This document shows positions 1-6,000 of a stretch of 9,242 bases of DNA, in pieces. How positions within the stretch are numbered: the first letter of the stretch is position 1; each line of letters begins with the position of its first letter. Made by a program: the position numbers. Origin of the DNA: a candidate division WOR-3 bacterium (GTDB lineage: Bacteria; Hydrothermota; Tepidihabitantia; Tepidihabitantales; CAIPLT01); NCBI GenBank assembly GCA_965649215.1, contig CBFGJZ010000037.1:1-9242 (forward strand). The letters run 5' to 3'.

Positions 1-3000
1 CCAATATTCAGCGGTATTGCCACCGCCGAACTGAATTGTTTGTCCATACAGCGCCCAACTCCCGAAAACAATAAGTAAACTAAAGACAAAGAATAATTTA
101 TTTTTTACTGTCATCGCATTTTTTAGTTAATTCTCTAATCTTTTCCATAACTTTTTTCTCATCACCTGGCTTATAACCCTGATGGGTAAATATAATCTTC
201 TTGTTCTGGTCAACAATGAAAAAAGTGGGCATTACCTGCACATTATATGATTTACGCAGCTTATTTTCAGGATCTAAAACAATCTGATATTGCCATTTAT
301 GGCCTGCGGCAAAAGATTTAACTTCATCTTTGGACTTTGCTTTATCTTGGCTGATCGCTAAAAAACTAATACCCAATGAATCTATCTCTGGATAGTAAGG
401 TTTTAAGGCATCAAGTTCTTTAATACACATCTTACACCATAATGCCCAAAAACTCATTATCACGGGGCCCTTTTTGATGAGTGAATCAAGCACAACTAAC
501 TTACCATTAATATCATAAAGACTAAAACTGCTTGCATCTTTAAGAGTTATGGTCTTATCTTCTGCGTGCAGTCCTGCACTGATTAATAGTAATATTGATA
601 TTAAAGTTATAATTATCTTTTTCATATCACTCCACAAACTTGGTTTTTATTGCTTGTAATATTTTTTTACTTTGTCGATCTTGCAGAAAAACAACTCCTC
701 GCATTTTAGGCGGGGCAATGTTGTGATTAAAATTAATAATTGTATCTAAACTATCTGGATAACTAACATTAATGGGTATCGTCGTGAGTTGTCTTACGAC
801 AAAATTAAAAGTACCCCCGAGATCACCTCGGATGCTATCCTCGCATATCGCAATAAAGGCGTAAACTGAATCGTGCCGAATGGTATCCGCAGCACCTATC
901 TTCAGGTGTAATTGACCGCTATTAACCGTCACACTACCCGTTAATTCTAAATTGTAACTTGGCACAATTGATTTGGCAACAATATAGTGCTGATTAAAAA
1001 CTGTATCATAAGCATTGGGATTATTCTCAAAAACAACATCTGTCCCATCAAAAACTACGGTTGGATAAGCTAAAATATTATAATAATTCATTCGTTCTTG
1101 AATCTGGGGTAGTTCAGGTTGTACAGAATGATTATAAGAGACAATCACTATTGAATCTCCATAATTAGTATGCAATTGAACAAGCGACTGCTCCGCAGCC
1201 GCACAAAAAGGTCAACCATCCTCAGTAAAAAACTCAACTAAAACAACGCGATTAGTTGGTGTCGGCAAGATGCGCGGTGCTTCCGAACAAAAAACAAAAA
1301 ACAGCGGTAATAACAATAAAAATCTCTCTATCTTCATTCTATTATTATAACTCCGATATCTTTAATGTCAATTTATTTACTTAACTTTAAGTTCGATGTC
1401 GTCAGCAAGGACCCTTGCTTCACATGAAGCACCTCAGCATCCATTGGTTGTATCCATAACAACAATTTGAAGCTTTTTTATATCCGAAACAGTAATTCCG
1501 GATAAGTGACTCAATTCTTCGCTAATCTTAAAGCTGTAATTGTACCAGCTGTCCATATGTGGTACATTTATTAAATGTAGCGTGCTAGTATTTTGCCAAG
1601 GGCAATGCGCTGTTTTAGAGACGATACGGGTTTCACCTAATAATTGGTAGCTGTCATTTAAATATCTTAAACAAATTGCCGCGGCTGCCCAATAAGAAGC
1701 ATTGGGGTTATATTCAATTGCTCGTAAATTTGCTTTCGCAGAAAACTGAAGATCACTTGTTGGAAAATCTATGGTCTGGTACAATTTAATGTGTCCGGCA
1801 TTGATCTTTTCTATAACTAACTCAAAATCATTATCTCCATCTAAGTTTTGATAGCGAGCAATCTCGTCTGAATAATTTAATCCGGAAGTATTCCTTTGCC
1901 ACCCGCTATTTAAGTCTTGCTCAAAATCACCATTAACAATCACTTTATTTATTATTGGCGATGAAGAATTACGATGGCAAGCACTAACAATAATAAAAAT
2001 TACTAATAGAAAAAAAGTTTTACGCAATTACCTTAATTATTCCACTAATACTACTCGATAGCTAACTTTCTTGTGGTTATCAAGTACTAAATCAATGAAA
2101 TACACACCTGAATTTAGTTTCTGATTGTAGTCGTCTTTGCCATCCCACACTACAATATTTTCTTGATTATTTTTAGTATTTATAGTTTTAACACAATTAC
2201 CTAGTGTATTATAAATCCGCACTTTAATCTCTCGATGATTATCTGCTGAATATTGAAAATAAACCTGCTTACCAATTTTGATTGGATTAGGATAAATTCT
2301 AAATTGAGTTGAACTAATTTGGGTTTGGGGTGTTTCTTGAATGCCTGACAAGGTTATACCAAAAAATTTCATTATAGAATCAAGCAATATCTGTTTTGTC
2401 GAAGGTGCCGTACCATCTACCAAACTACCAAACTCAAACGAAACACCGATTGTCCGATAATTACCTGCATTATAAGCAACGCCACAATTATAACTATTAT
2501 TGCCGTCTTGGAATATCACATAACCAGTTGTCGCATTAATCCGATCCATATAGTTATTTTCTCCTGAATAATTGAAGTCCATTCCTGCAGTAAAAGTGTT
2601 ACTTACACCGATAACCGGTCCCATATCGCCGCTGCCATCGCTTACCCCAACTAAACCAAACATCGTATTAAAATTATGTCCGCCCACTTGTGGGTCATAA
2701 TACCAGACTTCGCCTCCTTCCATGTAAACTCGACCACCGCTGTTAAGATAATTAATTATCGCAGTTGCCTCAGCACCATTGGCAGCAATCCGATAATTAT
2801 TCGGGTAGACACCACAACAAACAAAGATCGACCGATAAATATCTAAGGTCGGTTCCGCAAGTAAATTAGTTGTAATCGCCCCAGTATAGCCATTAAAAGT
2901 TAAAAGATTGTGAATCGTTTGACCTGATGAAGGTGTGATATCTGGGTTCCAAACCAAATAATGATAAGAACCAACCACCAACGTGAAATTAAAGGTATCA

Positions 3001-6000
3001 GAAAAACTCCCTTCACTTGCAATTAATCTAAATACCGCATTGTGTCCCTGGGGACAAGAAGTGGAAACTGTAATTTGATAAGGATCCGCTGTATTCTCTT
3101 TAATGCTATCAATTAAAATACTTCCAAAATAGCCGCTATTATCGTTGATCGTTATATAGGGACTGCTACTCTGAAGGGTGGTGTTTAAATTGTTAAAATT
3201 AGCGCCACCAATATTGCGGAGAAGCGCGGTTAGATTAACGGTTTCACCTGGATCTAAACGCCCATTATTATTGCCACTTCCATCATAAACATTAGCTTTA
3301 ATAAAGCTCAAGTAATGATTGGTGCCATTATAATTTAAGGCCACATCATCGGCGAGGACCCTCGCCATACAATGACCACTTCAGCACCCATTGGTTGTAT
3401 CTAATAGAGCAATTTGAACTTTTCTAATTTGGGTTGGATTTACTCCTGGTAAATTAGCAAGTTCGTTATTTAAGTTAAAACTATAATTATACCAGTTATT
3501 CGGGTCCGTAACATTAATTAGATGAATCGTACTGGTACTTGTCCAAGGACTATGCGGGGTTTTGTAAGCAATACGGGTTTCGCCAAGTTGATTACCGTTT
3601 GCGTCCAGATATCTTAAACAAATCGCTGCGGCTGCCCAATAAGTTGCAGTTGGAGTATATTCAAGGGCATACAATTTTGCAGTAACCGAAAAATCCAAGT
3701 CAGTTGTGGGAATATTCACCGTTTGATATAATTTTGCATATATTTCATCATATTTTTTAACTCTTACCTCATAATCAGGATCAAGATCAAAATAAGTTTG
3801 ACGATCAATCGTATCTGAAGTATTCTGAAGTCCAAAAGCACTTGACCAACCAATATTCAAGGGTTGTTCAAAATCGCCATTTGTTAACAAACGTCCACCC
3901 AGACCAATACTTATTATTGATAAGAACAAGATCAAAAACTTTACCCTCATCGGGAACTCCTTCAATTTTATTTCAGTATTATTTTTCCTATTTTAGAGCC
4001 GGCGTCGCATTCAAACCGATAAAAATAAGTACCAGCACTCACCGAGTTAGAAAAATCACATTTCACCGATTCGTTATTACTACGAGTAACGCCTGATATT
4101 GTTTTCACATTTCGACCACTAATATCAAAGATTGTAATTTTATATTTACTTCCTTGGTTTAAAGCAAAAGTAAACCATACCTGATTATGAGCAGGATTTG
4201 GTGAAACTGAAATTGGATAATTATTAATTTTGCTTTGGTTGGGTTCTTCAACACCTGTTAAATTTAAATCTAGAAGTTTTATTTTTGCACCTTGATTAAT
4301 TCGTTTCGTAATATTCACATTCATTGGATCTTGAATCATCGCAATTATTTCAACTCGGCTTTCAACCCATCCCGATGCAATTGAAAACGGATAACTGACG
4401 GTTATGGAATCCTGGTAGTTTAAAGTTACTGGTGTACCAATATGGTCAGGCAGATAGTCGCGTGCGACATGATTATGCCACTGGTCACCATTAGGTGTTT
4501 GTCGATAAATACTATCTTCTGTAATTACAAATAATACATTGTGCTGTAAAGTCGTTACAGTATCACTGATAAAACGTACATAGATTGTACCTGTTCGAGT
4601 TGCTTGATTATAATCTCCCCAAATTCGTGCATTAATACGTGATTCCACTGCTGCCCGCTGTAATATTAAATTTTCCCAATTCGAATAACTACTACCTGCG
4701 CTATAGTCGCCATCTATCCACAACCATGGGGTATAATAAGTTGTACCCGGCATGGGTAGATAAAAAAATCGGTTGCGTGCTTTTAATAAATACATTCCAT
4801 AACTTGCATAACTAGAATTGACATGCATTTCCACCGCTGCCGTTGCTCGGGGATAATTATATGAGATTTGTGCCAGTACACTACTGGCCGTAACACAAGA
4901 AGCTCAGCCCTCTGAATATGCTTCTTCGCAAACCACTACGCGATCATATGCTTGAATTGAAGCAATGAGCCCCAATCCAACAATTATTAATAGGGTACTA
5001 AATAATTTATTAATCATAATGCCCCCATTCTTTAATAGATTATTTTATCAATCATTTTTTATATTGTCAATGCTTTATTAAGCAAACTTGACTATTAACA
5101 AATTATATTCTAAACTAAAAGAGTAACACCCGTCGGAGGCGGATGGGTGCTGGTGTGCCTGCTGGACTTCAAATCCAGGTGTTCTTCGAAAGGAGAACGG
5201 TAGGTTCGATTCCTACACGCCTCCGCCAATATTAAATTTTATTTATAATTTTAAGCGAAAGCGTCCTCACATCTCCTTGTCGGACGGTAATCCCTTTAGA
5301 ATCAAAATAAATTAAAAGGGGTAGGACCGCTCGTCGACTGGCATTTAGTAAATCCCTAAATTGTGAAACTCTTATTTCTTTGTTGTGCTTTAAGAATTCA
5401 ATCAATTTTAACTCTGCTTCTTTAACATATTTGTGATGCAAAACTAAGCCCTCGCCAATATTAATTAAGATTTTATTGTCAAGCAAATACTGATAAGCTT
5501 TTTTAATATCATTCTCTTTGCCAATTATTTTCGATTTCACATCCTTAAAATCAAGCGGTTGAAACTTTTGTGCTAATATCAATTTTTCAATTCTTTCAAC
5601 ATAGTCGGCAATAGTTTTCTCTAAAGCCACCTTAAATTCACTAAGATATATTTTTTTATCTGCTGAAATTTTAATTACTCCNNNNNNNNNNNNNNNNNNN
5701 NNNNNNNNNNNNNNNNNNNNNNNNNNNNNNNNNNNNNNNNNNNNNNNNNNNNNNNNNNNNNNNNNNNNNNNNNNNNNNNNATCTTGTTGAAGTTCTTCAA
5801 TTGCCCAGTCAAAAAGTATTTTATCTAAAGCAGGGCTTGCCTTCTTTAATAATTCTAAAGCTGAAATACCAATACTACTCGGATTGTTTTTATGATAATC
5901 TTTTAGCTCTTCAATAATTTTTTGCTTTAATCTTTCTCTATTCTCAGTGTGATAGTATAGTTCTTTTTTTTCATCTAAACACAATACCTTACGCTGAGCA

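Follow-up and report, generated by a model that had tools for sequence, protein, structure and literature searches.

Results

Organization of the locus

The window, that is, the whole stretch of 9,242 nucleotides analysed here, is contig CBFGJZ010000037.1 (1-9242), and its coordinates are contig coordinates. It contains an operon in which selA, selB and tRNA-Sec are followed by four genes with one in-frame TGA each. Two of these, referred to as genes A and B, lie directly downstream of selA/selB/tRNA-Sec, amid two more candidate UxxC selenoprotein genes. The features are as follows.

98..637, minus strand: ResA/TlpA-like exported thiol-disulfide oxidoreductase, with W-C-K-M-C
627..1337, minus strand: thioredoxin/Omp28-like lipoprotein, downstream of gene B, with a putative Sec site of a second type
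1377..2027, minus strand: gene B, lipoprotein-type, 216 aa, the predicted Sec-bearing jelly-roll domain alone
1404..1419, minus strand: SECIS-like hairpin of gene B, AGCAAG / loop GGUC / CUUGCU, 14 nt past the UGA
1434..1436, minus strand: putative Sec codon UGA of gene B, context N-G-C-U-G-A-S-C
2037..3950, minus strand: gene A, candidate exported selenoprotein, 637 aa, with a signal peptide and four domains: predicted jelly-roll domain with the putative Sec (residues ~20-207), Ig-like sandwich (residues 214-326), GATase1/ThuA-like alpha/beta domain (residues 328-536) and T9SS type A C-terminal sorting domain (residues 549-636)
3351..3366, minus strand: SECIS-like hairpin of gene A, GGCGAG / loop GGUC / CUCGCC, 14 nt past the UGA
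3381..3383, minus strand: putative Sec codon UGA of gene A, context N-G-C-U-S-G-H-C
3968..5017, minus strand: Omp28-related thioredoxin-like candidate selenoprotein with a T9SS tail, upstream of gene A (NF045500, E 3.5e-11, below cut-off)
5135..5228, plus strand: tRNA-Sec, anticodon UCA (ARAGORN; Rfam RF01852, 77.5 bits over 5135-5224)
5232..7262, minus strand: selB, Sec-specific elongation factor (TIGR00475, 333.6 bits, cut-off 242)
7400..8674, minus strand: selA, selenocysteine synthase (TIGR00474, 440.3 bits, cut-off 268)

Under translation table 11, genes A and B are each split at the internal TGA. When TGA is read as U, the frame at 2037-3965 (minus strand) yields 642 aa, or 637 aa from the ATG at 3950, and the frame at 1377-2027 (minus strand) yields 216 aa. 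The N-terminal domains carrying the putative Sec are 52% identical over ~190 aa. Both frames and both TGA sites of the survey's finding, two adjacent genes sharing a domain with an in-frame UGA, were thereby reproduced. In the Omp28-related protein encoded at 3968..5017, the Sec site is U38 in G-U-A-S-C (TGA 4904-4906), while in the protein encoded at 627..1337 it is U42 in G-U-P-F-C (TGA 1212-1214), the true stop being the TGA at 627-629. Genes of the 3968..5017 type are conserved neighbours of gene A orthologues within the same taxonomic family, and conservation of the thioredoxin-like neighbour genes was found only inside this family, to which the window belongs.

The genome has selA, selB, selD and tRNA-Sec, three of them in the gene A/B operon, and in its SelD a small hairpin with an AGUU loop comes after the classical Sec TGA (G-U-A-S-K). 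From these sequences, the internal UGA is almost certainly read as selenocysteine via the ordinary bacterial route of SelA, SelB, SelD and tRNA-Sec. A reassigned code in which TGA means Trp or Gly (codes 4 and 25 are examples) might also account for frames that open once TGA is read as a residue, and the residue would then not be Sec. However, SelA (424 aa), SelB (676 aa) and the ResA-like gene are free of in-frame TGA and encode Trp by TGG, and the gene at 627-1337 terminates on TGA. Moreover, each domain has one TGA, at a single column and always with a hairpin after it, and tRNA-Sec, SelA, SelB and a Sec-type SelD are encoded in the genome. We give reassignment practically no credence.

Conservation of the in-frame UGA

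U occupies one column in 68 of the 71 domain copies sampled (orthologues and paralogues, thus kin and not independent events), and it is kept across lineages of only 24-52% identity. The domain is present in 58 of 66 genomes of the order, where nearly all of the ~150 matches listed (three more are unlisted) carry exactly one in-frame TGA, within frames that are open for 200-1669 aa; the exceptions among the matches listed are two without TGA and one with TAG and TAA. All 150 matches listed in a phylum sample of 251 genomes carry one TGA. The earlier claim that the UGA is conserved in this domain is well borne out by these counts.

Around the site, only U is invariant. The residue at -1 varies (C 36, G 21, S 6 and T 5; n = 68), a vicinal Cys-Sec being found in 36 of the 68 copies, genes A and B among them. 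No partner Cys is conserved near U, and a Cys at +4 occurs in 17 of 68. At the Sec column, two relatives, P0036 and P0039 (= L032), carry Cys, and Ala, Glu or Val is found in other homologues that lack Sec; all other conserved residues are retained in Sec-less relatives.

Public gene callers read these loci as if TGA were a real stop, which would leave two genes per locus (a 190-aa secreted fragment and a downstream gene) or a decaying pseudogene, and gene A does possess an ATG five codons past the TGA (ORF 2037-3368). Yet an ATG after the TGA is seen in only 2 of 13 GCUxxxC-type copies with ARVLADD, the others having E, L, W or I, and just 18 codons remain past the TGA in gene B. The last jelly-roll strand, modelled with high confidence, follows the TGA, and the frame is open and conserved over hundreds of codons in about 150 copies listed. 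Since the single stop falls at the identical column in 68/71 paralogues and orthologues, the loci are not decaying. A real stop is therefore regarded as very improbable.

A covarying hairpin downstream of the UGA

The gene A hairpin coincides with the codons for M-A-R-V-L-A, where the last beta-strand begins, and differs from that of gene B at two pairs, both compensatory. The folding energies of the single sequences are unremarkable: the gene A hairpin has an MFE of -19.2 and a z of -2.31, and that of gene B is predicted with a z of only -0.21, 78 of 200 shuffles folding equally well. Across the family, the spacer between UGA and hairpin is 11, 14 or 17 nt, the stem has 6 bp, and the tetraloop is N-G-U-N, mostly GGUC. 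Such a 6-bp hairpin with an N-G-U-N tetraloop very probably constitutes a minimal SECIS that directs decoding.

In an alignment of 68 sequences anchored on the Val codon, 98.3% of the stem cells were paired versus 87.0% in shuffles, although part of this conservation is at the protein level because the hairpin overlaps the conserved motif A-x-V-x-A-D-D. None of 500 shuffles reached the observed pairing, and controls with slid partners gave 61.5% at most. There were 50 double-change cells, four of the six pairs show compensatory changes, and the Ala3/Xaa3 pair is seen in all four Watson-Crick types. The proposed SECIS-like hairpin, which covaries and ties two codons together, was thus recovered, and its proposed consensus GGCGAR/YUCGCC is seen in gene A; that consensus is, however, just one of several pairing variants.

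The pairing leaves its mark on the protein. Residue triplets in the Sec copies are KVF (35), EVS (17), RVL (15) and EVF (1, with a G-U wobble; n = 68), and such a triplet is kept in only 2 of 16 Sec-less homologues. The flanking residues are restricted to R-V-L, K-V-F or E-V-S because the RNA of the hairpin has to pair within the codons of the last strand. In addition, a 26-nt hairpin pattern run over 596 Gb returned 23 loci, every one of which (23/23) has an in-frame UGA 7-9 codons upstream.

Predicted fold and export

The AF2 model of gene B has a pLDDT of 95.7 and a pTM of 0.91, and it places the strand past the UGA (residues 178-191) within the sandwich. By this model, the Sec-bearing domain is a predicted jelly roll of the CBM4/9-like (galactose-binding-like) fold class, the beta-jelly-roll fold being common to the model and to solved CBM4 structures; the CBM-like jelly roll described earlier was hence obtained again. 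PF02018 (CBM_4_9) does not match the gene A or gene B protein at E<=0.01, and its weak matches, which at E<=1 number 4 among 70 members with 0.0071 as the lowest E, stay below the gathering score.

Gene A ends in a T9SS tail that exceeds the cut-offs of both TIGR04183 (31.5 bits, cut-off 23) and PF18962 (28.3 bits, cut-off 27), in agreement with the sorting tail ascribed to one of the proteins. The gene B product has a putative lipoprotein signal, with a lipobox (…IVSAC) read by eye. As to the T9SS machinery, the genome has a PorU-like frame that covers model positions 6-1094 and, at 409 bits, narrowly misses the cut-off of 420, and a 1887-aa frame in which SprA_N is over cut-off. The product is predicted to be an exported module of ~190 aa, which in gene B makes up a whole lipoprotein and in gene A forms the N-terminal part of a T9SS cargo, with Sec placed in a short loop that joins the last two strands.

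Distribution of the domain and SelA

In the sample of 251 phylum genomes, the domain and SelA (E<=1e-20) co-occur in 86, while 5 carry the domain alone, 19 SelA alone and 141 neither. SelA is therefore present in 86 of the 91 domain-bearing genomes, and the domain in 5 of 146 SelA-less genomes. Three of these five carry SelA fragments or SelB; in the other two (76% and 96% complete, in 220 and 300 contigs) neither SelA nor SelB was found over the cut-off. The domain had been described as confined to SelA-positive genomes, with 0 of 63 SelA-negative genomes carrying it. The link is strong but not absolute in draft genomes, and the zero strictly fails in the larger sample. Up to nine paralogues occur per genome. 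By the source names of public sequences, the family belongs to candidate division WOR-3.

Discussion

Novelty of the family

No model of Pfam (2025) or NCBIfam 20.0 (June 2026) matches the domain in the gene A and B proteins at E<=0.01, as the survey had stated, and when 70 members were compared with the profile libraries, the best match was only CBM_4_9 (E 0.0071). The comparison with catalogued selenoproteins covered one review table (PMC13188914, Table 1) and the HMM libraries. None of the 119 families in that table fits the domain, none of the PF, NF or TIGR models listed there matches it, and no jelly-roll, CBM or T9SS family appears among the 119 rows; rows with cd or PTHR identifiers were set apart by their descriptions (thioredoxin-like, Fe-S, CopZ and BtuF proteins). 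The reported absence from the catalogue accordingly stands. Searches of the literature on selenoproteins in Cloacimonas, Cloacimonadota or WOR-3, and in connection with type IX secretion or carbohydrate-binding modules, brought up no paper on the domain. Public gene calls do end at the UGA, as claimed: 119 of the best 150 library representatives stop at the Sec position, and the annotation of the halves reads "hypothetical protein" or "T9SS type A sorting domain-containing protein".

The selenoprotein might still have been described or curated under another name, given that the comparison spans one review table, Pfam (2025) and NCBIfam 20.0. Against this stand the lack of any HMM match at E<=0.01 in the gene A and B proteins (CBM_4_9 coming closest, in 4 of 70 members), the lack of a fitting row in PMC13188914, the uninformative public names and the silence of the literature covered, so that we consider it unlikely. 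It is highly probable that Sec decoding is real and that the family is real and uncatalogued. The decoding route is ordinary SelB/SECIS; what is new is the protein family and the fold context.

Comparison with known systems

E. coli fdhF is the prototype of SelB/SECIS-dependent UGA recoding, with GGUC as its apical loop. As in fdhF, a hairpin with a G-U apical loop comes no more than about 20 nt after the UGA, and selA, selB, selD and tRNA-Sec are present. Unlike fdhF, the WOR-3 family conserves only the 6-bp stem and its tetraloop, spaced 11, 14 or 17 nt from the UGA, and its hairpins show no conserved bulged U. They fall within the last beta-strand of a lectin-like domain that is exported, and not within a redox enzyme. 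Relative to CBM4/CBM9 (PF02018), CBM16, CBM70 and related galactose-binding-like jelly rolls, the family falls below the Pfam threshold, and sugar binding is only putative. We know of no CBM with Sec.

DUF1573 (PF07610) is an exported beta-sandwich. The "UGC" selenoprotein of that family (PMC13188914, Table 1) is likewise built on a non-thioredoxin domain, but its Sec motif and position differ, and PF07610 matched none of the 70 members at E<=1. The Omp28-related selenoprotein NF045500 ("hypothetical protein GOS_C" in PMC13188914, Table 1) is also exported and carries a T9SS or lipoprotein signal. Next to gene A lies a divergent member of this type, and another relative lies two genes downstream. 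The Omp28-related family has a thioredoxin-like fold with UxxC near the N-terminus and is unrelated to the jelly-roll domain in both sequence and fold. Haft & Gwadz (bioRxiv 10.1101/2022.07.06.499078) read the CU motif of SaoB, SaoC, SaoL and HgcA as a soft-metal ligand pair, and SaoB and SaoC are exposed outside the cytoplasm. The present family resembles these proteins in this exposure and in its 36/68 Cys-Sec copies, whereas folds and neighbourhoods are unrelated and the Cys before U is replaced by G, S or T in 32/68.

Possible roles of the selenol

The domain may serve as a binding module at the cell surface, with the selenol in its loop as the reactive group. The likeliest reading, which we hold at somewhat less than even confidence, is that the selenol is a redox-active nucleophile forming Se-S bonds and kept reduced by the adjacent thioredoxin-fold (seleno)proteins. 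It is possible, though less probable, that the selenol instead acts as a soft-metal ligand together with flanking Cys and His (C-U-x-x-H-C in gene A). Any one chemical mechanism is weakened by the fact that no partner Cys is conserved and only U is invariant.

Sec might even be real and have no chemical role at a binding site, as a structural Se-S cross-link or a neutral Cys replacement that drift has fixed in a Sec-rich lineage. The Cys, Ala, Glu or Val of Sec-less relatives, in which other conserved residues are kept, and the variable residues flanking U would suit this view. On the other hand, U persists in 68/71 copies at 24-52% identity despite the cost of a SECIS that constrains the protein, and Cys replacements are rare (two seen); the view appears rather unlikely, yet deserves some weight. 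With considerable doubt, we further suggest that the family is the core of a T9SS-exported extracellular selenoproteome, in which Sec would contact the ligand in a lectin-like site, capture would proceed by reversible Se-S or Se-metal bonds, and adjacent surface thioredoxin-fold selenoproteins would perform the recycling. Candidate targets would then be thiol- or sulfide-bearing polymers, polysulfide or a chalcophile metal.

Significance

According to PMC13188914, known bacterial selenoproteins are mostly thioredoxin-fold or metal-cofactor redox enzymes. The present family sets a putative Sec in a loop of a predicted lectin-like beta-sandwich on the cell surface. It would be a large addition to the selenoproteome, with up to nine copies per genome in 91 of the 251 sampled genomes of one candidate phylum, and hundreds of public gene models would have been cut in two. 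It also offers a clean natural case of an intragenic SECIS dictating the protein, through three interchangeable residue pairs (R-L, K-F and E-S) encoded by Watson-Crick complements. To our knowledge, selenol-based ligand capture is not known in any carbohydrate-binding-type fold, and the capture mode would be new to such folds if that reading is true. The family would make this candidate phylum rich in selenoproteins, and it raises a testable question about the role of a selenol outside the cell.

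Results

A gene cluster for selenocysteine and its machinery

The genes of interest form one cluster, all on the minus strand, in a genome of 1.64 Mb that is 95% complete. The features of the cluster are as follows (U denotes selenocysteine, Sec, at an in-frame TGA).

Features of the cluster
7400-8674, minus strand: selA (TIGR00474, 440 bits)
5232-7262, minus strand: selB (TIGR00475, 334 bits)
5135-5228, plus strand: tRNA-Sec (Rfam, 77.5 bits)
3968-5017, minus strand: Omp28-related thioredoxin-like selenoprotein with a T9SS tail; TGA 4904-4906, G-U-A-S-C
2037-3950, minus strand: gene A, 637 aa with its ATG at 3950; TGA 3381-3383, N-G-C-U-S-G-H-C
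1377-2027, minus strand: gene B, 216 aa; TGA 1434-1436, N-G-C-U-G-A-S-C
627-1337, minus strand: thioredoxin/Omp28-like lipoprotein; TGA 1212-1214, G-U-P-F-C; true stop TGA 627-629
98-637, minus strand: ResA/TlpA-like CxxC protein, last of the cluster

Four consecutive genes (3968-5017, gene A, gene B and 627-1337) each contain exactly one in-frame TGA. No such codon occurs in SelA, SelB or the ResA-like gene, where Trp is encoded by TGG, and 627-1337 itself terminates on TGA; a general reassignment of TGA is thereby excluded. Elsewhere in the genome, SelD (contig C3, 101165-102073) is itself a selenoprotein with a classical Sec TGA (C-A-G-U-A-S-K), downstream of which lies a small hairpin closed by an AGUU loop. 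The tRNA-Sec gene runs in the opposite direction to selA, selB and the selenoprotein genes, and only 4 nt separate it from the selB stop. SelA has 424 aa, and separate pieces of it, all in one open frame, match the 455-position model; the same piecewise match in the two closest relatives, G001 and G003, suggests a divergent segment specific to the lineage.

Genes A and B share the N-terminal Sec-bearing domain, the first ~190 residues of the two proteins being 52% identical. The gene at 627-1337, a fourth selenoprotein gene that the survey's finding did not mention, is of the lipoprotein type and thioredoxin/Omp28-like. It contains an 8-bp hairpin 12 nt past the UGA, and its matches to NF033782 (31 bits) and NF045500 (24.5 bits) are weak, both far under the cut-offs. 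The product of 3968-5017 scores only 43 bits against NF045500, the cut-off of which is 200, and is therefore regarded as a divergent branch of that catalogued Omp28-related family. An Omp28-related gene is the conserved upstream neighbor of the gene A orthologues at eight loci (L004-L009, L036 and L037). Conservation of this neighborhood of gene A and thioredoxin-fold genes is limited to the organism's own taxonomic family.

Conservation of the UGA

The domain was found in 58 of the 66 genomes of the order, which carry at most nine copies each. Of the ~150 matches listed for the order, nearly all hold exactly one TGA, in reading frames that stay open over 200-1669 aa; two matches without a stop and one with TAG and TAA depart from this. 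In a phylum sample of 251 genomes, 91 possess the domain, and every one of the 150 matches listed has one TGA. When 71 copies were extracted from loci L001-L071, U fell at a single alignment column in 68, while one copy has Cys, one has neither residue and one is broken. The residue preceding U in the 68 copies is C (36), G (21), S (6) or T (5), and a Cys at position +4 from U occurs in only 17. Since the residues around U vary so widely, what is conserved is the UGA itself.

A profile search of 1.84 billion representative sequences returned 401 proteins at E<=1e-3. Among the best 150, 119 stop exactly at the Sec position, 19 are Sec-less homologues that span the whole domain, and 12 are other fragments. 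The Sec column of the Sec-less homologues is occupied by Cys in P0036 and P0039 and by Ala, Glu or Val in the others. A search for related loci with the protein P0002 gave no relative. Some very long proteins in the library contain the domain internally: P0058 (2727 aa, with three matched stretches), P0124 (1862 aa) and P0146 (1359 aa). P0153, P0171 and P0177 each carry a distant Sec-less homologue of the domain joined to an N-terminal lipoprotein module, which we take to be similar in sequence to CsgG/LpoB-type domains.

A SECIS-like hairpin that constrains the protein

A 6-bp stem closed by a GGUC loop begins 14 nt past the UGA in both genes.

SECIS-like hairpins
3351-3366, minus strand: gene A, stem GGCGAG/CUCGCC
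1404-1419, minus strand: gene B, stem AGCAAG/CUUGCU

Compensatory changes at two pairs distinguish the hairpins of the two genes. RNAfold predicts both, with z scores against shuffles of -2.31 for gene A and -0.21 for gene B, so that only the former clearly beats its shuffles, a comparison that is weakly informative for a single hairpin. The case for a SECIS element therefore rests on comparison, and not on energy.

For that comparison, 63 nt around the hairpin were aligned for the 68 Sec copies with the Val codon as the anchor. Within the 6-bp helix, 98.3% of the cells pair, against a shuffled mean of 87.0%, and none of 500 shuffles attained that value; when the partner was slid by 1-3 columns, pairing reached at most 61.5% of the cells. 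Both sides are changed in 50 cells, with compensatory changes at four of the six pairs, one of which appears as GC, AU, CG and UA. Moreover, the first base of the codon ahead of the loop pairs with the second base of the codon that follows the loop, and the second base of the former with the first base of the latter; the protein is therefore limited to R-V-L (AGG/CUN), K-V-F (AAG/UUY) or E-V-S (GAG/UCN). These triplets account for 15, 35 and 17 of the 68 copies, respectively, the remaining one being E-V-F with a G-U wobble; such a triplet is retained in only two of 16 homologues that lack Sec. The UGA and the stem are separated by 14 nt in most copies (46), by 11 nt in 15 and by 17 nt in seven. 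Two copies (L063 and L065) have an AGUU loop in place of GGUC, the same loop as in SelD.

Alignment A2 offered no stretch conserved enough to serve as a query, and taxonomic spread was followed instead with a DNA pattern drawn from the hairpin. The 26-nt pattern of the K-F form occurs at 23 loci in a 596-Gb genome collection, with an in-frame UGA 7-9 codons upstream in all 23; some of these loci lie in MAGs that their submitters labeled Thermoanaerobaculales, Cloacimonadota or Stahlbacteria. Family members that share the UGA and hairpin were seen at L079, L094, L081, L082 and L093, in MAGs with such labels; either the family extends past one phylum, or these labels are loose.

Co-occurrence with SelA

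SelA was found in 105 of the 251 genomes of the phylum sample.

Distribution of the domain and SelA among 251 genomes
Domain and SelA both found: 86
Domain found, SelA not found: 5
SelA found, domain not found: 19
Neither found: 141

The survey's finding had confined the domain to SelA-positive genomes, with none in 63 SelA-negative ones. The association holds (86 of the 91 genomes with the domain have SelA), but "0 of 63" was too strong in view of the five exceptions. One of these carries a SelA fragment adjoining a full selB, another a full selB, and a third a SelA fragment where a contig ends; the other two, both fragmented MAGs, show no trace of SelA or selB. Among the places listed, at least seven genomes have selA and a family member no more than 10 kb apart.

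Fold of the domain

An AlphaFold2 model built from 70 domain sequences, with Sec modeled as Cys at residue 174 of 192, gave an all-beta sandwich (pLDDT 95.7, pTM 0.91). In this model Sec sits in the 171-177 loop joining the last two strands, and the strand past the UGA (178-191) belongs integrally to the sandwich. Judging from the strand topology, the Sec loop would occupy the sandwich tip that is remote from the N- and C-termini. By structure, the best matches are a CBM70 hyaluronan-binding module (13.6), a porphyran-binding CBM (13.2) and CBM16 (12.9), followed by CBM4 (10.6-11.3) and Fbs sugar-binding domains (10.9-11.2); Foldseek was concordant. The sequence link to CBM_4_9 is faint (four of 70 members match, best E 0.0071). 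A PDB sequence search with the domain profile gave nothing useful (best E 0.011, a GH31 accessory domain), and one with the C-terminal half gave no match. The full-length model of gene A (pLDDT 89.9) adds three parts to the domain, among them an Ig-like domain and a T9SS tail, and the genome carries PorU-like and SprA-like genes.

Residues N8, F11, W19, Q60 and E147 are invariant and are kept equally in the Sec-less homologues; on this pattern of conservation, they define the fold and not a Sec-specific site. Because N8, W19 and Q60 are kept in this way, two readings were set aside, namely a tetrad of Sec, Gln, Trp and Asn as in GPx and a thioester-like Cys-Gln bond. Gene A might also have had a catalytic Cys in its GATase1-like domain, but this was rejected, as the residue is not kept in the orthologues (FVCCG, FITLG, FVCLG and FVNCG).

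Discussion

Strong comparative evidence indicates that the UGA would be decoded via the standard SelB route. The domain itself would be an exported binding module with a reactive selenol in a loop. A redox or nucleophilic role of this selenol is favored. The two genes are flanked by genes for three exported proteins with a thioredoxin fold, of which the Omp28-like one is conserved upstream of gene A orthologues. The main alternative is a soft-metal site, for which gene A supplies a C-U-x-x-H-C motif; CU motifs are interpreted as metal ligands by Haft & Gwadz (bioRxiv 10.1101/2022.07.06.499078). However, neither the Cys nor the His of that motif is conserved family-wide.

No model of the domain exists in Pfam (2025) or NCBIfam 20.0 (June 2026), and there is no jelly-roll, CBM or T9SS family among the 119 prokaryotic selenoprotein families of Table 1 in a 2026 review (PMC13188914), the text of which lacks Cloacimon*, T9SS, type IX, carbohydrate, secret* and lipoprotein. 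A literature search on selenoproteins or selenocysteine in connection with Cloacimonas, Cloacimonadota, Cloacimonetes, WOR-3, type IX secretion or carbohydrate-binding modules found no description of the family, and the passages searched in Peng 2016 and deep-Sep 2025 mention neither the host phylum nor secreted or T9SS families. The two halves are publicly named 'hypothetical protein' and 'T9SS type A sorting domain-containing protein'. As checked against one review table, Pfam, NCBIfam and the literature, the family is apparently uncatalogued. By its comparative record, this is a real and large selenoprotein family, canonical in its decoding and unusual in its fold and location.
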